This document shows positions 30,431-42,361 of a stretch of 64,000 nt of DNA, piece by piece. Position 1 is the stretch's first letter; each line of letters starts with the position of its first letter. This DNA is from Acidobacteriota bacterium (lineage in GTDB: Bacteria > Acidobacteriota > UBA890 > WLXD01). The position numbers and the translations under genes were made by a program. The DNA lies in assembly GCA_963666215.2 (NCBI GenBank), contig CAXWPL010000002.1, positions 448,001-512,000 on the forward strand, in the 5' to 3' direction. Under the pieces are notes generated by a model. It worked only from the letters and a program-made list of their open reading frames with translations, did no database searches and was not told the origin of the DNA.

Positions 30431-31795
<1,365 letters not shown>

Positions 31796-31906
31796 CCGGA
31801 AGGGATCCTTGTGGAGAACCGAGCCCGGCTCCATCTCGTACTCATGCCAGCCCCGTGTCCACCGTGATCTGCGGCAGTGCCGCTCCAACGGATCGGGCGT
31901 AGGGCT

Positions 31907-32154
31907 TCAGAAGTTAAGTTGACCGTGCCGTCTCACGCCAGCGGCCGGCTCGAGCCCGCCCAAGATCACCGATCTGCGCACCGTGCCCGCATCGGCACCG
32001 AGCGACATGCGGATGCCCATTTCACGCGTCCTTCCCCGCGACCGAGTAGTTGACGACTCCGTACAGTCCGATGGCGGCGAGCACGAGGGCCAGCCCGCCC
32101 GACAAGCCGAGAACTGGGGCCGCCACGCGGGGCCCGAAGAGCATGGTGCCTAGG
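31907..32154 (-). pseudogene. C-terminal remnant of an ADOP-type ABC permease cut by IS481
   Basis: LALVLAAIGLYGVVNYSVA/(frameshift)/RTREMGIRMSLGADAGTV; 5' part absent beyond the IS. Confidence 0.75.
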
Positions 32155-33198
32155 TGTGTTTTCTAAATAGGTTGTTCACATCGGGGCTCACTTCTGAGAT
32201 CAATGGGGTTGTTCCACGACTCCACGAACTCAGAAGGAGCGCCCGATGCAGCTGCATGGTAATGCCCGCACGACGCCGTATATACGCCGCGAGATGGTCC
32301 GCCGGGTCCGGGAGCAGGCGGAGCCTGTGACGGAGACGGCGGCGGCTCTGGGCGTGTCGACTCGAACGGTCTACAAGTGGCTGGGTAGATACGAGCAAGA
32401 AGGTGAAGCCGGGCTCTTGGATCGATCCAGCCGGCCGCAGGGCTGTCCGCACCGCACCGCCACCGGAGTTGTGCGGCAGATCGACAAGCTGCGGCGTCGA
32501 CGACTGACCGCTTGGCAGATCAGCCAGAGGCTGTCAGTGCCACGCTCCACCGTCTCGGCGTGGTTGAGCCGGCTGGGGCTCGGGAAGCTCGATGTTCTGG
32601 AGCCCAAGCCGGCGATCGTGCGCTATGAGTTCAGCCGTCCAGGTGACTTGCTGCACTTGGATACCGAGAAACTGGCCCGTATCCGGCGTCCTGGCCGCCG
32701 CATCCACGGCGATCGCTCCAAGCGGGCCTACGGCGTCGGCTGGGAGAACGCCCACGTCGCTATCGACGATCACTCAAGGGTGGCGTACGTCGAGGTGCTG
32801 TCCGCCGAGGATCAACACACCTGCACTGCGTTCCTGCAGCGAGCCGTCGAGCACTTTGCTTCGATGGGAGTAGCGGTGCGCCGGGTCATGACAGACAACG
32901 GACCCGGCTACGTCTCGAAACGCTTCAATCGCCTATGCCAGCAACTCGAGATCCGGCACATCTACACTCGGCCGTATACGCCCAGAACCAATGGCAAAGC
33001 CGAACGCTTCATCCGCACGCTGCAAGGAGCAGTGGGCCTACGGCACCTGCTACCAGACCTCAGCTCGTCGTACTCGAGTCTCTTCGGCCCTGGCTCAACC
33101 ATTACGATCGCCACCGTCCCCACGCCGGTATCGGCATGACACCGCCGATCGATCGACTCTCAGGGGTGAGTTCATGAACAACCTATTTAGAAAACACA
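32155..33198 (+). mobile_element. IS481-family insertion sequence, copy 2 (1044 bp)
   Basis: Perfect 24-bp TIR TGTGTTTTCTAAATAGGTTGTTCA; flanks CCTAGG / GCTAGG; close homologue of copy 1. Confidence 0.93.
32246..33177 (+). pseudogene. IS481 transposase with two +1 frameshifts near the 3' end
   Basis: Aligns to copy 1; extra bases near 33022 (ACGCTGCAAGG vs ACACTCAAGG) and near 33080. Confidence 0.8.
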
Positions 33199-33290
33199 GC
33201 TAGGCGGTCCACTCCTAGCGCCTGAAGGCGCGTGAGCGGCAGAGGCAACTGCCGCCCACGCGAACCGTCCGGCTGCGCACCCGTGCCTTC

Positions 33291-33863
33291 TCAGCAGGTC
33301 GTCAGCTTGAACTCCACCGGCACCGCCCGCGAGACGATGTCGTAGACCGGAGAGTGCAGCGCCAGTTCGGTGAGATCCTCTGCCGAGGCCTCGCTCTTGA
33401 CGCGCATGTTGACCGTGACCTTGTTGAAGCCCTTGCGCACGTCGTCGGACATGCCGAACAGGCCGCGGACATCCATGTCGCCGGTGTACGACGATTCGAC
33501 TGCTTCGATCCGGATGCCGCCCACGGCTGCGTGGGAAACGAGCGTCCCGGTCAGACAGCTGGCCAGCGCGTGCAACACATACTCCATCGAGTTTGGCGCA
33601 CTGTCCTGACCCGCGGCGATCGACGGCTCATCAGCATCGAGAGTGAAGGCATCTTCGCGCGTGGTGTCTTCCGTGTTACCGGCGAAGAAGTCCTTGATCC
33701 GGCTGCGGCTCAGGCCGCCGTTGATCCACTGGTTGGTGGCGCGGAACTGGAAGCTGGCGTAGCCCGAGTCCGCCTCGATCGAGCCGATCACGTCCATGAG
33801 CTGGCCGACGTCAACTCCGTTCGTCAGCTGAGCCTTTTCTTGGGGTGCAACGCTGGTCGTCAT
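33291..33863 (-). CDS. OsmC-family protein
   Basis: NGVDV, FQFRATNQW, ADEP...G.D.APN.MEYVLHALASCL, SPVYD. Confidence 0.85.
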   Translation of the reverse strand: MTTSVAPQEKAQLTNGVDVGQLMDVIGSIEADSGYASFQFRATNQWINGGLSRSRIKDFFAGNTEDTTREDAFTLDADEPSIAAGQDSAPNSMEYVLHALASCLTGTLVSHAAVGGIRIEAVESSYTGDMDVRGLFGMSDDVRKGFNKVTVNMRVKSEASAEDLTELALHSPVYDIVSRAVPVEFKLTTC

Positions 33864-33954
33864 TTCATCTCTCCTGCAATCGTTGCCGGCGCGGGATTGC
33901 GACCGTCGGAGAGCATGTTACGAAGCTGGACGCCAGGCTCGACAGTGTAGGATC

Positions 33955-33971
33955 TGTAGCACTGAACTACA
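33955..33971. promoter_or_regulatory. inverted repeat between divergent osmC and hxlR (putative operator)
   Basis: TGTAG-N7-CTACA. Confidence 0.4.
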
Positions 33972-34010
33972 TATTCTGGAGTTAGAAATAGCAGGCGGAG
34001 AGGCACACCC

Positions 34011-34718
34011 ATGGCGGGTTACGGGCAGTTCTGCCCGGTGGCGAAGGCGACCGAGATCATCGATGGAAAGTGGACAGTGTTGGTCCTGCGTGAGCTCTTC
34101 TTAGGCACCACGCGATTCAACGATTTCCAGCGTGCGATCTCGCGCATGTCGCCGACCCTGCTCACGAAACGGCTCCGACACCTCGAGGAATGCGGCATCG
34201 TCATTCGCAAGAAGCTTTCGGGCCAGAGGGGCTACGAATACCGCTTGACCGGGGCCGGCAAGGAGCTCGGCCCGCTGATCGAGATCCTCGCGGTCTGGGG
34301 CATGCGCTGGGCGCGCGGTCAGCTGACGGATGACGAGCTCGACGTCGAATTCCTGATGCGGGACCTGCAGCGGCGGCTACAGACCGAGCATCTGCCCGAC
34401 GGCGAGACCGTCATCTGCTTGAAGTTCGACGAGCTCACGAAGCACAAGACCTGGTGGCTGCTCGCAGACGGCGACGTGGTCGACCTGTGCACCGAGAACC
34501 CGGGCAAGGAAATCGATCTCTACATCAAGTCGACCGTGCGCACGATCGTCGAGGTCTGGGAGGGCGACCTCGACATGCGCGCGGCGCTGCGCAACAAGTC
34601 GATCGTGGCGCTCGGTCCGCGCCATCTTGTTCGCACCATGCCAGACTGGTTCGGCGTCTGTCTGTACAAGGACGTCCGGCGAGGGGACCCCCAACTCATG
34701 CGGCAAGCCGCTGAGTAG
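34011..34718 (+). CDS. HxlR-family transcriptional regulator with C-terminal domain
   Basis: YGQFCPVAKATEI..KWT..VLREL..G..RFND, EYRLT..G; GGAGAGG SD. Confidence 0.9.
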   Translation: MAGYGQFCPVAKATEIIDGKWTVLVLRELFLGTTRFNDFQRAISRMSPTLLTKRLRHLEECGIVIRKKLSGQRGYEYRLTGAGKELGPLIEILAVWGMRWARGQLTDDELDVEFLMRDLQRRLQTEHLPDGETVICLKFDELTKHKTWWLLADGDVVDLCTENPGKEIDLYIKSTVRTIVEVWEGDLDMRAALRNKSIVALGPRHLVRTMPDWFGVCLYKDVRRGDPQLMRQAAE

Positions 34719-37969: not shown

Positions 37970-39547
37970 TTAGTGGGAGTGGGCGGGCGCTGCGTCCGGC
38001 GACAGCGCCGCGAGCCGGACCTGGTAGGCGCCGGTGGTGACGACGCGATCGCCTGGGCTCAGACCCGAGACCACCTCCACCAGGTCGCCCTGGCGGATGC
38101 CGGTGGCGATTGCCCGCTCCTCGAACGTCTCGCCGCCCAGCTGGAGGTACACCACCTGCACCCCGGCGAGGTCGATGATCGCCGCGGACGGGATCGCGAC
38201 GACGGTTCGCGCCCCGCCCACGTGCAGGCGAGCTACGGCGCTCATCCCGGGGCGGAGGGTGGCGCTGGCGCCTCGCAGCTCGTAGCGCACCGGGGCGGTC
38301 CGGGTCGTCGCGTCGAGCTCGACACCGAGCTCTAGTAGTCGGCCACCGACGATCCATTCGTTCTGCCCGGCAGTCGAGCGCACGGCCGTAGCCGGCCGCA
38401 GGGCGAGGGACAGCACCTCGCCGCTGCGTCGCGCCTTCAGCAGCTCCTGGAACTCCGGCTCTGGCACCTCGACCCGCGCCACGAGAAGGTCGAGGTCGAC
38501 GATCCGGAACAGGGTGCGGGCCGGATCGACCGGCTCGCCGCGTGTGACGTGGACCTCGGCCATGATCCCCCCCATCGGCGCCAGGATACCGAGACCGTCC
38601 TCGACCGACCCGGCCGCCGACACAGCCGAGGCGCGGTTCTGCAGGGCGGCCAGCCCCGCACGGGCGTTCTCGAGGGCGATCTCCGCCTCGTGCAGGCGAC
38701 GCGCGGGGACCGCGCCGGCATCGACCAGCCGGCTCGCGCGAGCATGCTCACGCTCCGATTCCGCTACGCGGTTGTGAGCCTCCACGAGCTCCGCGGGCAA
38801 CGTGTGCCATCCCGCGATCGACTCCGGAAGCGGCGTCAATCGACCGAGCAGCTGACCGCGACGGACGGCGGCACCGGGAGACAGCAGGCCGGAGTCGGGC
38901 GCTTCGAAGAATCCGGCAGCCGGCGAGGCCACCAGTGCCGTACCGCTGGGATGAGCCTCGATCGTCGCGGGCAACTCCAACGACTCTTGAAGTGGCGCCG
39001 CGGCAGCGGCCACGGTGGCGAACGGAATGCGCCACTGCTGCTCCTTGAGAAATCCGATACCAGCGGGCTCGGAGGGCGGCGCGTCGAGCTCTCCGACCGA
39101 GGAGGCCACTCTGACGTCCCACGCCACTTCGTCGATCGCGCCAGTCGGGGAGGTGTACACGAACCTCAGCCGGGCGTTCCCCGCCGTCTCCGGTCGGATC
39201 GCCGGCAGGAAGATCCCGGAGCGGGCGACCGAATCGACGCCGACCTGCTGTCGCGCGGCTCCCGAGGAGTCCAGCAGGCTTACGTCGAGCCGACCCGCCT
39301 CGACGGCTCGAAAGTCGCCCAGCTCAGTCAGATGAGCGGCGATCTCCGCCTCCTCTCCGACGACGAACAACGGGTGCTCTACGAACCACTCATGGGTATC
39401 GGTCCACCGTGTTTCGACCCGGGAGGGCCGTTCCTCCTCGGCCTCCTGTGACTCGGAAGCAGAGTCGGGACGGCCACAGGCGACTAGCGCAAACAGGAGG
39501 AGAAGGGCAGTCACCACCGATCGCGTCGACAGGAGATTCCGAGTCAT
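37970..39547 (-). CDS. RND efflux periplasmic adaptor (lipoprotein)
   Basis: Lipobox LVAC, ILAPMGG, LRPGM, GLSPGDRVVTTGAY, C-terminal HSH; ATG overlaps tolC stop. Confidence 0.9.
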   Translation of the reverse strand: MTRNLLSTRSVVTALLLLFALVACGRPDSASESQEAEEERPSRVETRWTDTHEWFVEHPLFVVGEEAEIAAHLTELGDFRAVEAGRLDVSLLDSSGAARQQVGVDSVARSGIFLPAIRPETAGNARLRFVYTSPTGAIDEVAWDVRVASSVGELDAPPSEPAGIGFLKEQQWRIPFATVAAAAAPLQESLELPATIEAHPSGTALVASPAAGFFEAPDSGLLSPGAAVRRGQLLGRLTPLPESIAGWHTLPAELVEAHNRVAESEREHARASRLVDAGAVPARRLHEAEIALENARAGLAALQNRASAVSAAGSVEDGLGILAPMGGIMAEVHVTRGEPVDPARTLFRIVDLDLLVARVEVPEPEFQELLKARRSGEVLSLALRPATAVRSTAGQNEWIVGGRLLELGVELDATTRTAPVRYELRGASATLRPGMSAVARLHVGGARTVVAIPSAAIIDLAGVQVVYLQLGGETFEERAIATGIRQGDLVEVVSGLSPGDRVVTTGAYQVRLAALSPDAAPAHSH

Positions 39548-40827
39548 CGTGTGACCGCCTCTCCGGCCGTCTGTCCCGACGCCCACTTCCAGGTGAACCA
39601 GGAGGAGGCTCGACGCCGCTCGAGCTCGATTCGTCGCGAAGCCGCTTCGAGCGACGCACGCACCGTGTCGAGCAGCGCCACCACCTGCATCTCACCTTCC
39701 GCGTAGGAGACCCGCGCCATCTCGATCAAGCTCGGTCCCGGGACTTCGCCCGCGTCACGAAGGGCAGCGGTCGCGAGCTCGTATTCGCCCAGAGCTACCC
39801 GACTCCGCGCCACGAGCTCGCGGTCGAACATCTCGACCCGCTGTCGCCTTCGACGCTCCTCTACTGCGGCCGCGGCTGCCGCGTCCCGGTTGCGGTCGAA
39901 CAGCGGCACCACCGCGCCGATGCTCAACACGAAGCCCCCGTAGCCCGGGTCGACGCGGCTGTAGCCGGCATTCACGATCAGGTCCGGAAATGCCTGTCGT
40001 CGCGCGAGCTTCTGCTCGAGATTCGCCTGATGCGCGCGCTCCATCTCGGCGAGGATCTCCGGACGGGAGTCGCGAGCCTCCTCCAGACTTCGAGTCGTCT
40101 CTGTCTCCTCGGTCGCGGCCCCGGCGGGCTCGTCGAGAGGTGGCGGCCCCCCGGGCTCCGCGTCAGGAGCGCGCGTTTCCCAGCCTGCTGCCGGAGGCAC
40201 CAGTCCGGTCAGGGCCTCGAGCCGTATCGAGCCTGAACGCCGCGCTTGATTCGCCTCCGCCGCTTGCACCTCGAGCGCTTGCACCTCGAGGAACATCCGG
40301 CCGACGTCGAAGTCACTCACGTCACCCTCGGCGTTGCGCAGCTCGAGGTCACGCAGCAGGGAGCGACCGACGTCGAGCGCGGCCCGGATCGCCTCGTGTC
40401 GGCGCTGTGCGGCGTACAGCTCTACGTATTCCTGTTGCACCCGCAGCGTCAGCACGGCGCGGACCGCTGCCGCGTCCCTCTGCGACGCACGCTGCTTCGC
40501 CTCGGCCACGTCGACGGCGATTCCGGTGCGGCCCCCGATGGGCAGACTTTGCGACACGCTCACGATCAGCTGGTCGGCGCCGGGAACGGCGTTCGGGAAC
40601 CGCTCCTGATACACGGTTACCAGCGGGTTCGGCCAGCGACCGGCTTGATCAGCGCGGTGACCGGCGACCTCAGCGGCGAGGAGCGCCGCGGCCAGCTCCG
40701 GGTTGTGCTCCTCGACGGCGGCCACGGCGCTGGCCAGCATCAGGGTCGAAGAACTCTGGGAATTACCGGTGGAAGGCGCCAGCAGGAGCAGCACGAGAGC
40801 TCCGACGACACCGCGCGAGATCGACAT
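39544..40827 (-). CDS. TolC/CzcC-family outer membrane efflux protein
   Basis: Signal peptide, HNPELAAA, WPNP, SRPEI, PLFDRN, SYAEGE; first gene of the tripartite operon. Confidence 0.88.
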   Translation of the reverse strand: MSISRGVVGALVLLLLAPSTGNSQSSSTLMLASAVAAVEEHNPELAAALLAAEVAGHRADQAGRWPNPLVTVYQERFPNAVPGADQLIVSVSQSLPIGGRTGIAVDVAEAKQRASQRDAAAVRAVLTLRVQQEYVELYAAQRRHEAIRAALDVGRSLLRDLELRNAEGDVSDFDVGRMFLEVQALEVQAAEANQARRSGSIRLEALTGLVPPAAGWETRAPDAEPGGPPPLDEPAGAATEETETTRSLEEARDSRPEILAEMERAHQANLEQKLARRQAFPDLIVNAGYSRVDPGYGGFVLSIGAVVPLFDRNRDAAAAAAVEERRRRQRVEMFDRELVARSRVALGEYELATAALRDAGEVPGPSLIEMARVSYAEGEMQVVALLDTVRASLEAASRRIELERRRASSWFTWKWASGQTAGEAVTR

Positions 40828-40831
40828 GCGT

Positions 40832-40907
40832 GCCCTCCGCGGGCTGAGCGTGGTTCAACGGGCGAGGCGGTGTGTCCGGCGTGACCGGACGGGCTCAGAC
40901 GGAGGGC
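40832..40907 (-). promoter_or_regulatory. SD-sequestering mRNA structure between leader ORF and tolC
   Basis: mRNA GCCCUCCG (40907-40900) pairs with CGGAGGGC (40839-40832, contains SD); CUGAGC/GCUCAG second helix; inner 6-bp hairpin 40874-40890. Confidence 0.65.
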
Positions 40908-41335
40908 GCCGGTGGTCCGCGATCAGGAGTCGATCGTCGAAGTCGCGCGCGCGGCACGCAGACGTCGACATCGCCGACCGATGAGCCTGAAGGCGCATCC
41001 TGGCCAACGATGGAAGGCTGCACTGCTCGCCGAGGTTCGCTCGGCCGCTCGCGGAGTGGAGTCACTGTGCTCGTCGACCGCACGACGCCGTCCCGATCAT
41101 GAAGCAGCGTCATCGGAACGATGCGGACCGGCGCCAGCTCGATTCGGCCGGCGGCCACCGCGGCTTCCTCGTCGGTCGGGCGCTCGCCGTGGTGGTGCGG
41201 TAGGCCGCTACCGTGCGCGTGAACCCGATGACCCGCGCCGGGCGGCTCGCCCGTGTGTACGTGCGCGCGTCCGGTCACTGGAACGCACACAACCGCGAAA
41301 GCCAGGAAACCTACAGCGACGAATCGGATCCGCAT
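40895..41335 (-). CDS. His-rich exported leader protein with C-terminal RGPP motif (DUF2946/CruR-like architecture)
   Basis: MRIRFVAVGFLAFAVVCVPVTGRA signal; HVH..HRVHAH..HHH; ends DRGPPAPSV*. Confidence 0.65.
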   Translation of the reverse strand: MRIRFVAVGFLAFAVVCVPVTGRAHVHTGEPPGAGHRVHAHGSGLPHHHGERPTDEEAAVAAGRIELAPVRIVPMTLLHDRDGVVRSTSTVTPLRERPSEPRRAVQPSIVGQDAPSGSSVGDVDVCVPRARLRRSTPDRGPPAPSV

Positions 41336-41799
41336 GCGCGCAAGGTACCACGCGCTCGAAACCACCGCGCTTGGTCAAGTCGCGACGCTATACGTGCCCT
41401 GTCTCGGTCCGCGGGAGCGGTCGATCGCGTTTCCGGTCCCGGCTCCGGGCACCTGTGCGACGGGCCGCTTTCGCATCGAGACCTCGCGAAAACTGATGGC
41501 TATCTGATTGCCGCTTCGAGGCGCGCGAGCTCGGGGTCGGCGATACACGGTTGCGTGAAGTGTTCGAGGCCCGCGTGGCTCGGCGCTGAAAGGGCCGCTT
41601 CCGCGCCCCTCCTGCTGGCAGTAGACGGACCGCACGGCGGATCGCCAGCATGCAGCGACGGTCGCGGTCGCTTCCGTCTCCTGCATGTCGGCACTAAGCC
41701 GCGTCAGAACATCGGTTATCGAATCGAAATACTCAGTGGTCATCCCGCAACTCCTCGGCATAATCGGCCATTTCGAGATCCCCGGGCCACTCGGAGCCG

Positions 41800-41962
41800 G
41801 CGCGGAAGTTGGGGCGCGGACGATTCGCTCGTCTTCGGATCGGCCAACACCGAGCTCATGCGGATACCCGCCGGCGGAGGAAACTGGGAAGAGCTGACGA
41901 CGCCGGCCGCGGGAGAGTCACACAGCTGGCCTTGGTACCCTGCTGGACTTGTACGTTTATAA
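41800..41962 (+). pseudogene. fragment resembling the beta-propeller region of Ser/Thr kinase/TolB-like proteins
   Basis: GSWGADDSLVFGS...LMRIPAGGG...LTT...GESHSWP; no start or remainder. Confidence 0.45.
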
Positions 41963-41977
41963 TCTAGATTCTAGAAT
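41949..41977 (+). promoter_or_regulatory. sigma70-like promoter with overlapping palindromes (putative PadR operator)
   Basis: TTGTAC-N17-TAGAAT; overlapping perfect palindromes AATCTAGATT (41961-41970) and ATTCTAGAAT (41968-41977). Confidence 0.55.
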
Positions 41978-42016
41978 ACAGAATCACGACAGAAGAGCCC
42001 TATCCGAGACACCGAG

Positions 42017-42361
42017 GTGATCGCGACGATGACAAGAACGCGGGTCGGCGAATTCGAAGAGCTCATCATGCTGGCGATCCGAGCCCTGGACGATGCCGCC
42101 TCTTGCCGAGCGGTGCAGACCATGCTCGAGGAGCGCGCCGAACGCGCCGCTTCGCTCGGCTCGATCTACGCGACAATCGACCGCCTCGAGCGCAAGGGGT
42201 ATGTCGAATCGTGGGTGGACACACCCGCCGAAGGAATTGCTCGGCGGGGACGATTCCACCGGGTGACGACCGACGGGGTGGACGCTCTCGACGGCATGGA
42301 CCGCATTCGCGACTCGCTGCGTGAGGGCGCATTTTCGACGGGGGCACCCCGCGGTGAATAG
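42017..42361 (+). CDS. PadR-family transcriptional regulator
   Basis: VGEFEELIMLAI, SLGSIYATIDRLERKGYVES; start may be ATG 42029. Confidence 0.88.
   Translation: MIATMTRTRVGEFEELIMLAIRALDDAASCRAVQTMLEERAERAASLGSIYATIDRLERKGYVESWVDTPAEGIARRGRFHRVTTDGVDALDGMDRIRDSLREGAFSTGAPRGE

Follow-up and report, generated by a model that had tools for sequence, protein, structure and literature searches.

Among described regulators, CutF of Rhodobacter capsulatus requires a signal peptide, a CxxxC site, a PPP motif and a stem-loop that covers cutO's ribosome-binding site (Ozturk et al., mBio 2023, PMC9973294), needs that a preprint likewise gives as signal, metal site, proline motif and stem-loop over the ribosome-binding site (bioRxiv 10.1101/2025.02.05.636593). 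CruR (Bp2923) of Bordetella pertussis is the prototype of the DUF2946 family, PF11162 (Roy et al., mBio 2022, PMC9426467), and its arrest and toeprint are reported by Fujiwara et al. (EMBO J 2025, PMC12992588). The element analyzed here is an open reading frame (ORF) of 146 codons that precedes a tolC-adaptor-czcA operon of the resistance-nodulation-division (RND) type on a 64,000-nt stretch of an Acidobacteriota genome (assembly GCA_963666215.2, contig CAXWPL010000002.1, positions 448,001 to 512,000; hereafter the window, whose own numbering is used throughout). Judged by its sequence features, this ORF is likely to work in cis as an exported arrest leader of CutF/CruR design, sensing metal and controlling how the operon is translated.

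The leader begins with a hydrophobic N-terminus, MRIRFVAVGFLAFAVVCVPVTGRA (12-residue Kyte-Doolittle mean of at least 2.0), continues with a histidine-rich stretch, HVHTGEPPGAGHRVHAHGSGLPHHHGE (residues 25-51), and ends in ...TPDRGPPAPSV-stop, so that only A-P-S-V and a TGA codon follow RGPP; 67 nt separate the stop from the tolC-like ATG (Table 1). A first-pass annotation of this DNA had singled out the ORF, its coordinates, the 67-nt gap, the signal peptide, the histidines and the RGPP four codons before the stop; every number was right and every part is present in the sequence, with the strand (minus) left unstated. Its remark that histidines take the place of the CxxC of CruR also holds, since the leader has neither a CXXC (CruR) nor a CxxxC (CutF) but a His cluster, and its only cysteines are C17, within the signal peptide, and C126.

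The leader resembles CutF in its length below 150 residues, predicted Sec signal, presumed periplasmic metal site, C-terminal proline motif and proposed cis action, and perhaps in a short spacer whose predicted stem-loop would mask the following gene's ribosome-binding site; it also lies within the operational filters for CutF-like proteins, with 146 residues, PP at 141-142, a hydrophobic N-terminus and tolC 67 nt downstream. The two differ in that CutF combines CxxxC with PPP and is sensitive to elongation factor P (EF-P), whereas the window leader combines a His-only site with RGPP, a motif of the EF-P-refractory type; no similarity in sequence was detectable in the searches made here. The CutF-like list comprises 5,334 proteins with Cys, His or mixed sites, and their commonest downstream neighbor is the OEP/CusC/CzcC component of RND systems; the His-only clusters described there, 14 and 17, precede HupE/UreJ, in contrast to the RND pump that follows the window leader (PMC9973294). 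Acidobacteriota are not among the three major phyla named in that survey, which pools the remainder as minor 'other' phyla, and the leader family described below may or may not already stand in its list. The same survey counts as CutF-like the small ORFs CzcI, CusD and SilD, directly upstream of heavy-metal efflux (HME) RND operons in Cupriavidus metallidurans; by its description CzcI and CzcI2 lack the C-terminal proline motif that the window leader has in its RGPP.

CruR, with 145 residues and RAPP at 139-142, three residues from its end, resembles in layout the window leader, with RGPP at 139-142, four residues from the end; both have a signal for export and stand first in an operon for metal transport. 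In CruR, however, an invariant CXXC lies 45 residues before RAPP, the spacer measures 162 nt and control is Rho-dependent, whereas the window leader has no CXXC, a spacing of 89 residues, a 67-nt spacer and predicted shielding of the Shine-Dalgarno (SD) sequence. The signal of CruR is dispensable, copper relieves its arrest and its target is an importer, while the target here is an exporter (PMC9426467, PMC12992588). The RAPP-type tail of DUF2946 proteins is matched by the RGPP at 139-142 of 146, conserved in the related genome G003 discussed below. The leader is thus predicted to work like CutF, yet it is not a detectable member of DUF2946.

As arrest cores, RAPP and RGPP are robust and refractory to EF-P, and RGPP arrests most robustly; the ribosome stops with codons 3 and 4 of the motif in the P- and A-sites, and small secreted proteins encoded ahead of many kinds of genes are enriched for these cores at their C-termini (PMC12992588). 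ApdA, ApdP, SecM and a Streptomyces lividans set are likewise small secreted proteins encoded upstream of a regulated gene, with R-[AG]-P-P close to their C-terminal end; the window leader shares this arrangement as far as sequence goes. The first-described peptides of this kind monitor Sec or YidC, whereas the window leader precedes a metal pump. The metal-related downstream genes listed by Fujiwara et al. are TonB receptors, YcnI, PCuAC and PepSY, and the words 'efflux', 'TolC' and 'heavy metal' do not occur in the main text of that paper; a literature search found no paper on arrest leaders of RND pumps beyond those cited. The design of signal, metal site, RAPP-type arrest and control of a ribosome-binding site is therefore already published and is not a new principle; the leader appears to belong to a known kind of regulator, as a His-only version that is invisible to Pfam.

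Conservation of the leader

Among 401 genomes sampled from the phylum, three others carry TolC-like orthologs at E <= 1e-40 (50, 45 and 40% identity). The first of these, G003, belongs to the same family as the window genome, and upstream of its tolC (50% identical) lies an ORF that has a signal-like segment and the stretch HAHGIGLDHHH; it closes with ...HRGPPPLSV-stop at a distance of 73 nt from tolC (Table 1). The two leaders share HAHGxGLxHHH and RGPPxxSV-stop within an overall identity of 33% over 94 residues (pairwise E 2e-05), and HHH precedes the arginine of RGPP by 89 residues in the window and 91 in G003. The RGPP codons read CGC GGA CCA CCG in the window and CGC GGT CCG CCA in G003; these three synonymous changes are confined to third positions, and therefore the peptide motif is what is kept. 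The first-pass annotation had named loss of RGPP in homologs as the outcome that would speak against it; G003 retains the motif with different codons. The next 35 nt, through the stop and the first hairpin, are nearly identical in the two genomes. Since the genes upstream of the leader differ between them, the conserved block begins at the leader. For the other two genomes, G004 and G018, the orthologous contig breaks off either 66 nt upstream of tolC or inside the gene, and is silent on the leader.

A wider survey of metagenomes and species genomes, searched with an alignment of four TolC orthologs (a single TolC protein as query found no relative), yielded 96 TolC-like loci, of which 64 were counted after removal of 10 with less than 400 nt upstream and 22 duplicates; a leader was counted as a same-strand ORF of at least 45 codons ending just upstream of tolC. 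The upstream ORF carries R[AG]PP in its last 10 residues at 28 of 64 loci, another PP in its last 8 residues at 24, and neither at 12; among all other ORFs of the same loci the corresponding background is 3/4245 for R[AG]PP and 227/4245 for PP, so that the R[AG]PP tail is about 600-fold enriched at this position. The loci span several phyla, with labels that include Gemmatimonadota, Thioalkalivibrio and Verrucomicrobiota. Conservation of signal, histidines, R(A/G)PP and spacing in homologous operons, the check proposed by the first-pass annotation, is thus borne out in G003 and, for the tail motif, at these 28 loci. Several of the R[AG]PP groups carry the pattern of the window leader straight after the signal (HxH, an acidic residue, (V/L)HAH and HxH), whereas the 24 leaders with another PP mostly end ...GLYRPPR[AV] and have a CxxC site, or end ...PPR[IL]S after HEHSP.

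In two alignments of leaders with the His pattern, A3 (10 sequences) and A6 (12 sequences), H25, H27, R139, P141 and P142 are invariant; H41 and H49 are nearly invariant in A3, and H39 and H41 are invariant in A6. A profile of this alignment type retrieved 44 proteins from a collection of 5.8 billion; none of them has a Pfam domain, and where the source names them they are called 'hypothetical protein'. Among 21 that were fetched, R[AG]PP is followed by 1-7 terminal residues in 20, and the other one ends in RSPP. Against the 401 phylum genomes the A3 profile found the window and G003 leaders, both of them profile members, and one marginal match (E 8e-4) with an internal stop. In the window genome itself, R[AG]PP occurs in the last 10 residues of 101 of 48,997 stop-to-stop ORFs of 50-260 codons (0.2%), and the leader alone among the 101 combines a hydrophobic N-terminus with a downstream ORF on the same strand (at least 250 residues, starting 20-160 nt downstream). 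It is possible, if on the doubtful side, that the His-type leaders (HxH...E...HxH...HxH, then R[AG]PP) form a Pfam-invisible family unrelated in sequence to DUF2946, which would have arrived independently at the design of export, metal site, RGPP and anti-SD. Such leaders would respond to divalent metals (Zn/Cd/Co/Ni) instead of copper, and ZneA-like pumps of Acidobacteriota, Gemmatimonadota, Thioalkalivibrio and uncultured bacteria from sea and soil would have no other dedicated regulator.

The surveyed leaders show further variation. Many have two R[AG]PP-type motifs (L089:2376-2747, L078:2419-2754, L030:1267-2166, P0016 and others), the first lying 4 to about 30 residues before the last, as in ARAPPR...LRGPPA, RSRAPPQLRPRAPPLST, DRGPPRF...GRAPPLHA and PRAPPYLIGPSLRGPPPA; these could be tandem arrest sites, and the window leader has one motif only. 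TolC operons from marine metagenomes (L017, L019, L038, L016, L023, L027, L036, L055) have CxxC leaders that contain HHxHxCGxCHxH and terminate in GLYRPPR[AV], frequently preceded at 10 residues' distance by a further PRAGP; their scores against the DUF2946 model, 20.4-23.3 bits, fall just short of its gathering score of 23.7. Loci labelled Verrucomicrobiota (L093, L095, L096, L100-L103, L105, L107) have another type of leader upstream of TolC, H[ED]HSPA[VI][LM][QE] ... I[DE]xPPR[IL][SA]-stop, with no R[AG]PP.

Database searches with the leader as a single sequence returned no Pfam family at E <= 0.1, no NCBIfam family, no match in a word-indexed protein search, no phmmer match at E <= 0.001 among 1.84 billion representatives, and chance-level matches only in a tblastn-type search of 40 relatives. 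AlphaFold2, given a 10-row alignment, predicts the signal helix, residues 2-17, at block confidence (pLDDT) of 94 and 87; the mature part reaches only 46-61 from this shallow alignment, and therefore no fold is predicted for it. Signal peptide cleavage was placed, by inference, after residue 23, and an alternative in-frame GTG at 41365 would extend the leader to 156 residues. Near-identical DNA over 40700-41500 occurs in public sequencing runs of 10 studies; the two with uncoded labels, sponge metagenome and seawater metagenome, each match about one third of the sampled words at most. Three runs have contigs across the whole 801 nt, with four base differences (one synonymous, L77Q, F10L and one in a spacer loop), all outside the His cluster, RGPP, anti-SD and SD, and too few for a test of selection. 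None of the runs with near-identical DNA is listed as RNA; a single run guessed to be RNA contains a 311-nt contig over 40852-41091 that has an unrelated loose end and is not interpretable.

The tolC Shine-Dalgarno region and the proposed mechanism

When the region from the last codons of the leader through the tolC start was folded, GCCCUCCGUCUGAGC paired with GCUCAG...GCGGAGGGC in a long-range helix whose 3' arm contains the tolC SD sequence, GGAGG (40834-40838), 6 nt before the ATG. The anti-SD, GCCCUCCGU, occupies nucleotides +8..+16 counted from the first nucleotide of the first proline codon of RGPP. This segment falls within the stretch covered by a stalled ribosome, and the location of the anti-SD inside that footprint would explain why only four codons follow RGPP. 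A two-sequence consensus fold of the window and G003 has the shielding helix in both and comprises 25 pairs; three pairs have changed on both sides, one of them in the shielding helix, and five on one side, four of them in the shielding helix. Of 30 leader/tolC pairs, picked by hand to represent the 52 loci that have a PP-type leader, 24 have 5 or more of the 13 nucleotides of the SD zone paired to the leader tail; shuffled tails (60 shuffles) gave 14.2 such pairs on average and 19 at most. The coupling of the leader to pump translation that the first-pass annotation had put forward is supported by conservation of the upstream ORF and by anti-SD/SD complementarity at the predicted stall footprint.

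Table 1. Features of the leader, the tolC Shine-Dalgarno region and the downstream operon, in window coordinates.
Feature	Coordinates	Strand	Basis and remarks
Leader ORF, 146 aa	40895..41335	minus	ATG 41335, stop TGA 40895-40897; counterpart in G003 (L010:915-1427)
Sec-type signal peptide (predicted), residues 1-23: MRIR, a hydrophobic core and TGRA	41267..41335	minus	hydrophobicity; AlphaFold2 helix 2-17
His cluster, residues 25-49 (HVH..E..H..HAH..HHH), presumed periplasmic metal-binding site	41189..41263	minus	alignment conservation; G003
Candidate RGPP arrest core, residues 139-142 (CGC GGA CCA CCG)	40910..40921	minus	conserved in A3, A6 and G003
Anti-Shine-Dalgarno, GCCCUCCGU	40899-40907	minus	last codons of the leader
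Shielding helix, 5' arm, GCCCUCCGUCUGAGC (codons A-P-S-V, stop, 2 nt)	40893..40907	minus	minimum-free-energy and consensus folds
Inner hairpin, GUCCGG-UCAC-GCCGGAC, inside the shielding helix	40874..40890	minus	folds; same stem in G003
Shielding helix, 3' arm, GCUCAG...GCGGAGGGC	40832..40849	minus	minimum-free-energy and consensus folds
Outer-membrane factor (TolC/CzcC-like, OEP), 427 aa	39544..40827	minus	PF02321, E 3.3e-28
RND adaptor (CzcB-like)	37970..39547	minus	TIGR01730, 134 bits
HME-RND pump (CusA/CzcA family), 1022 aa	34889..37957	minus	TIGR00914, 783 bits (cut-off 701)

In the mechanism that we propose, the nascent leader would be targeted to SecYEG, and the ribosome would arrest at RGPP, its P-site occupied by the first proline codon and its A-site by the second, as shown for RAPP peptides; at this point the His cluster would be 90-115 residues back and already periplasmic. 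Without metal, the pull of translocation would free the arrest and the ribosome would terminate four codons on, after which the helix would re-form and tolC initiation would be low. Metal bound to the His cluster would prolong the arrest, and the stalled ribosome, sitting over nucleotides +8..+16, would leave the tolC ribosome-binding site free; the adaptor and the pump would then be translated by coupling, through an ATGA overlap and a 12-nt gap, respectively. The stalled ribosome could additionally shield the transcript from Rho. A divalent metal (Zn/Cd/Co/Ni) is the probable ligand, given that the pump resembles ZneA and does not have the methionine triad of CusA. Metal binding, stalling and the direction of control are inferred by analogy with the described leaders, and most likely the leader switches translation of the pump on.

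Alternative readings

Several observations weigh against this proposal. The direction of control is borrowed from CutF, and CruR acts in the opposite way (PMC9426467). The leader does not match the DUF2946 model at its gathering score, its His-to-RGPP spacing is 89 rather than the approximately 45 residues of that family, and hhalign of the His-type alignment A6 with an alignment of DUF2946-scoring Cys-type leaders (A5) gave a probability of 1.3%, which is no detectable homology. The surveyed loci are not independent and fall by eye into about ten leader groups, and G003 is the only informative close relative. On the RNA side, the window alone has 9 paired nucleotides against a control mean of 5.1, a value that 16 of 60 shuffles reach; its whole-region fold has no exceptional stability (z = -0.59); when 60 nt of 5' context are included, the SD partner lies inside the footprint in only 17 of the 30 pairs; and C-rich proline codons match G-rich SD sequences by composition alone. 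Finally, the codon statistics of the leader are weak, with a GC3 (G+C at third codon positions) of 0.69 against 0.79-0.89 for the pump genes and a codon log-odds of -0.20 per codon, equal to that of one stop-containing frame, and the score is poorest in residues 90-146, about the last 55 codons; because of these poor statistics, the case for the reality of the leader rests on conservation and not on composition.

That same weakness would fit the view that there is no gene here, only a chance open frame in DNA of 65% G+C upstream of an operon, and so would the 194-codon open frame that overlaps the leader on the opposite strand and the failure of the single sequence to find a match in two large protein collections. 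This view does not account for the counterpart in G003 with its synonymous changes in RGPP, for the profile match at E 1.2e-28 (but the window sequence is itself part of the profile), or for the fact that this is the sole ORF of its kind in the genome; a chance frame appears highly improbable. If the leader is a gene, it might instead encode a stable, His-rich periplasmic metal binder, a buffer or chaperone comparable to CzcI or to proteins of the CusF type, that acts in trans and in which RGPP is incidental. His-rich periplasmic proteins do go with metal pumps, and CzcI, encoded upstream of czcCBA, has no C-terminal proline motif in the description of PMC9973294. Between the orthologous operons, however, the motifs alone are conserved while the mature part has diverged almost fully; no fold is predicted, the tail motif is enriched about 600-fold, and the spacing from RGPP to the stop matches ribosome geometry, all of which make a trans-acting protein quite unlikely.

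Two further readings accept arrest and differ in what it does. The leader could be a metal-blind monitor of secretion or envelope stress of the SecM/ApdA type, which would tune pump synthesis to Sec capacity and in which the histidines would be irrelevant; RAPP/RGPP peptides arrest without a ligand and are freed by translocation force (PMC12992588), yet the His pattern is the only conserved feature beside R[AG]PP, and the target is a metal pump and not Sec or YidC, so that this reading is very unlikely. Alternatively, the same arrest peptide could act mainly on transcription, with the stalled ribosome blocking Rho loading in the spacer, release leading to termination, and the SD helix being secondary. 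CruR, the best-studied RAPP metal leader, works in this way (PMC9426467), and the spacer of the window leader is C-rich, with no intrinsic terminator found. Its length of 67 nt compared with 162 nt in CruR, the position of the anti-SD exactly within the footprint of the stalled ribosome and the nucleotide-level conservation of this segment in G003 argue for translational control; moreover, the polarity of CruR, in which metal relieves arrest and switches expression off, would be counter-productive for an efflux pump. We consider a mainly transcriptional mode unlikely, with the caveat that the Rho mode and the translational mode are compatible and do not exclude each other.

The efflux operon and implications

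In the operon that the leader is proposed to control, the likely start of the adaptor is an ATG at 39547, which forms an ATGA overlap with the tolC stop; a lipobox-like LVAC comes after it. A GTG at 39586 opens the longest adaptor ORF, and the pump starts 12 nt past the adaptor stop. At its N-terminus the adaptor is extended by about 150-190 residues (ERPSRVETRWTDTHEWFVEHPLF...; window 39100-39547, minus strand), a stretch with several histidines and no Pfam match that is conserved in G003 (L010:2748-3300). The pump is the sole match above the TIGR00914 cut-off in the genome, which is 92% complete; its best solved relative is ZneA (501 bits, compared with 437 bits for CusA), its fourth transmembrane helix reads AIGALVDDAVIGVEN, and at the positions aligned with the methionine triad of CusA (M573/M623/M672) it has N, E and H. 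These features weakly suggest a divalent cation as substrate rather than Cu(I) or Ag(I).

According to the first-pass annotation no two-component system or metalloregulator adjoins the operon. This holds only in part: neither a two-component system nor a gene of the MerR/ArsR type adjoins it, but a PadR-like gene with an FtsX-type permease lies on the opposite strand 681 nt upstream of the leader, and an HxlR-like gene lies just beyond the pump. That the leader is the main regulator of the operon is a guess. Between the leader and the divergent PadR-like gene, 41336-42016 (681 nt) holds no ORF recognizable by Pfam; past the pump, 30431-34718 contains the HxlR-like regulator and, divergent from it, an OsmC gene, together with a transposase of the IS481 type and a chromate transporter, and may be a stress or metal island. 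Rfam had no match at E <= 1 over 40600-42100, and a promoter scan found no minus-strand site (its consensus may not suit Acidobacteriota) and no terminator-like site; the inner hairpin has no U-run after it.

Stalling of the ribosome across the membrane by nascent-chain metal sensors, which regulates metal homeostasis without a transcription factor, has been recognized recently, and the examples tested so far, CruR and CutF, are both copper-sensing and cysteine-based. For the genome studied here, the leader is a candidate regulator of its sole pump above the HME-RND family cut-off, in a neighborhood with no dedicated metal regulator. If the proposed reading is true, a His-only version in front of a pump for divalent cations would carry the principle over to other metals, and the leader is a good candidate for the first non-copper example; present annotation would then be overlooking a whole set of such leaders, of which 44 relatives have no Pfam domain and the named ones are called hypothetical, and the leader would represent a compact, portable, metal-responsive translational switch.

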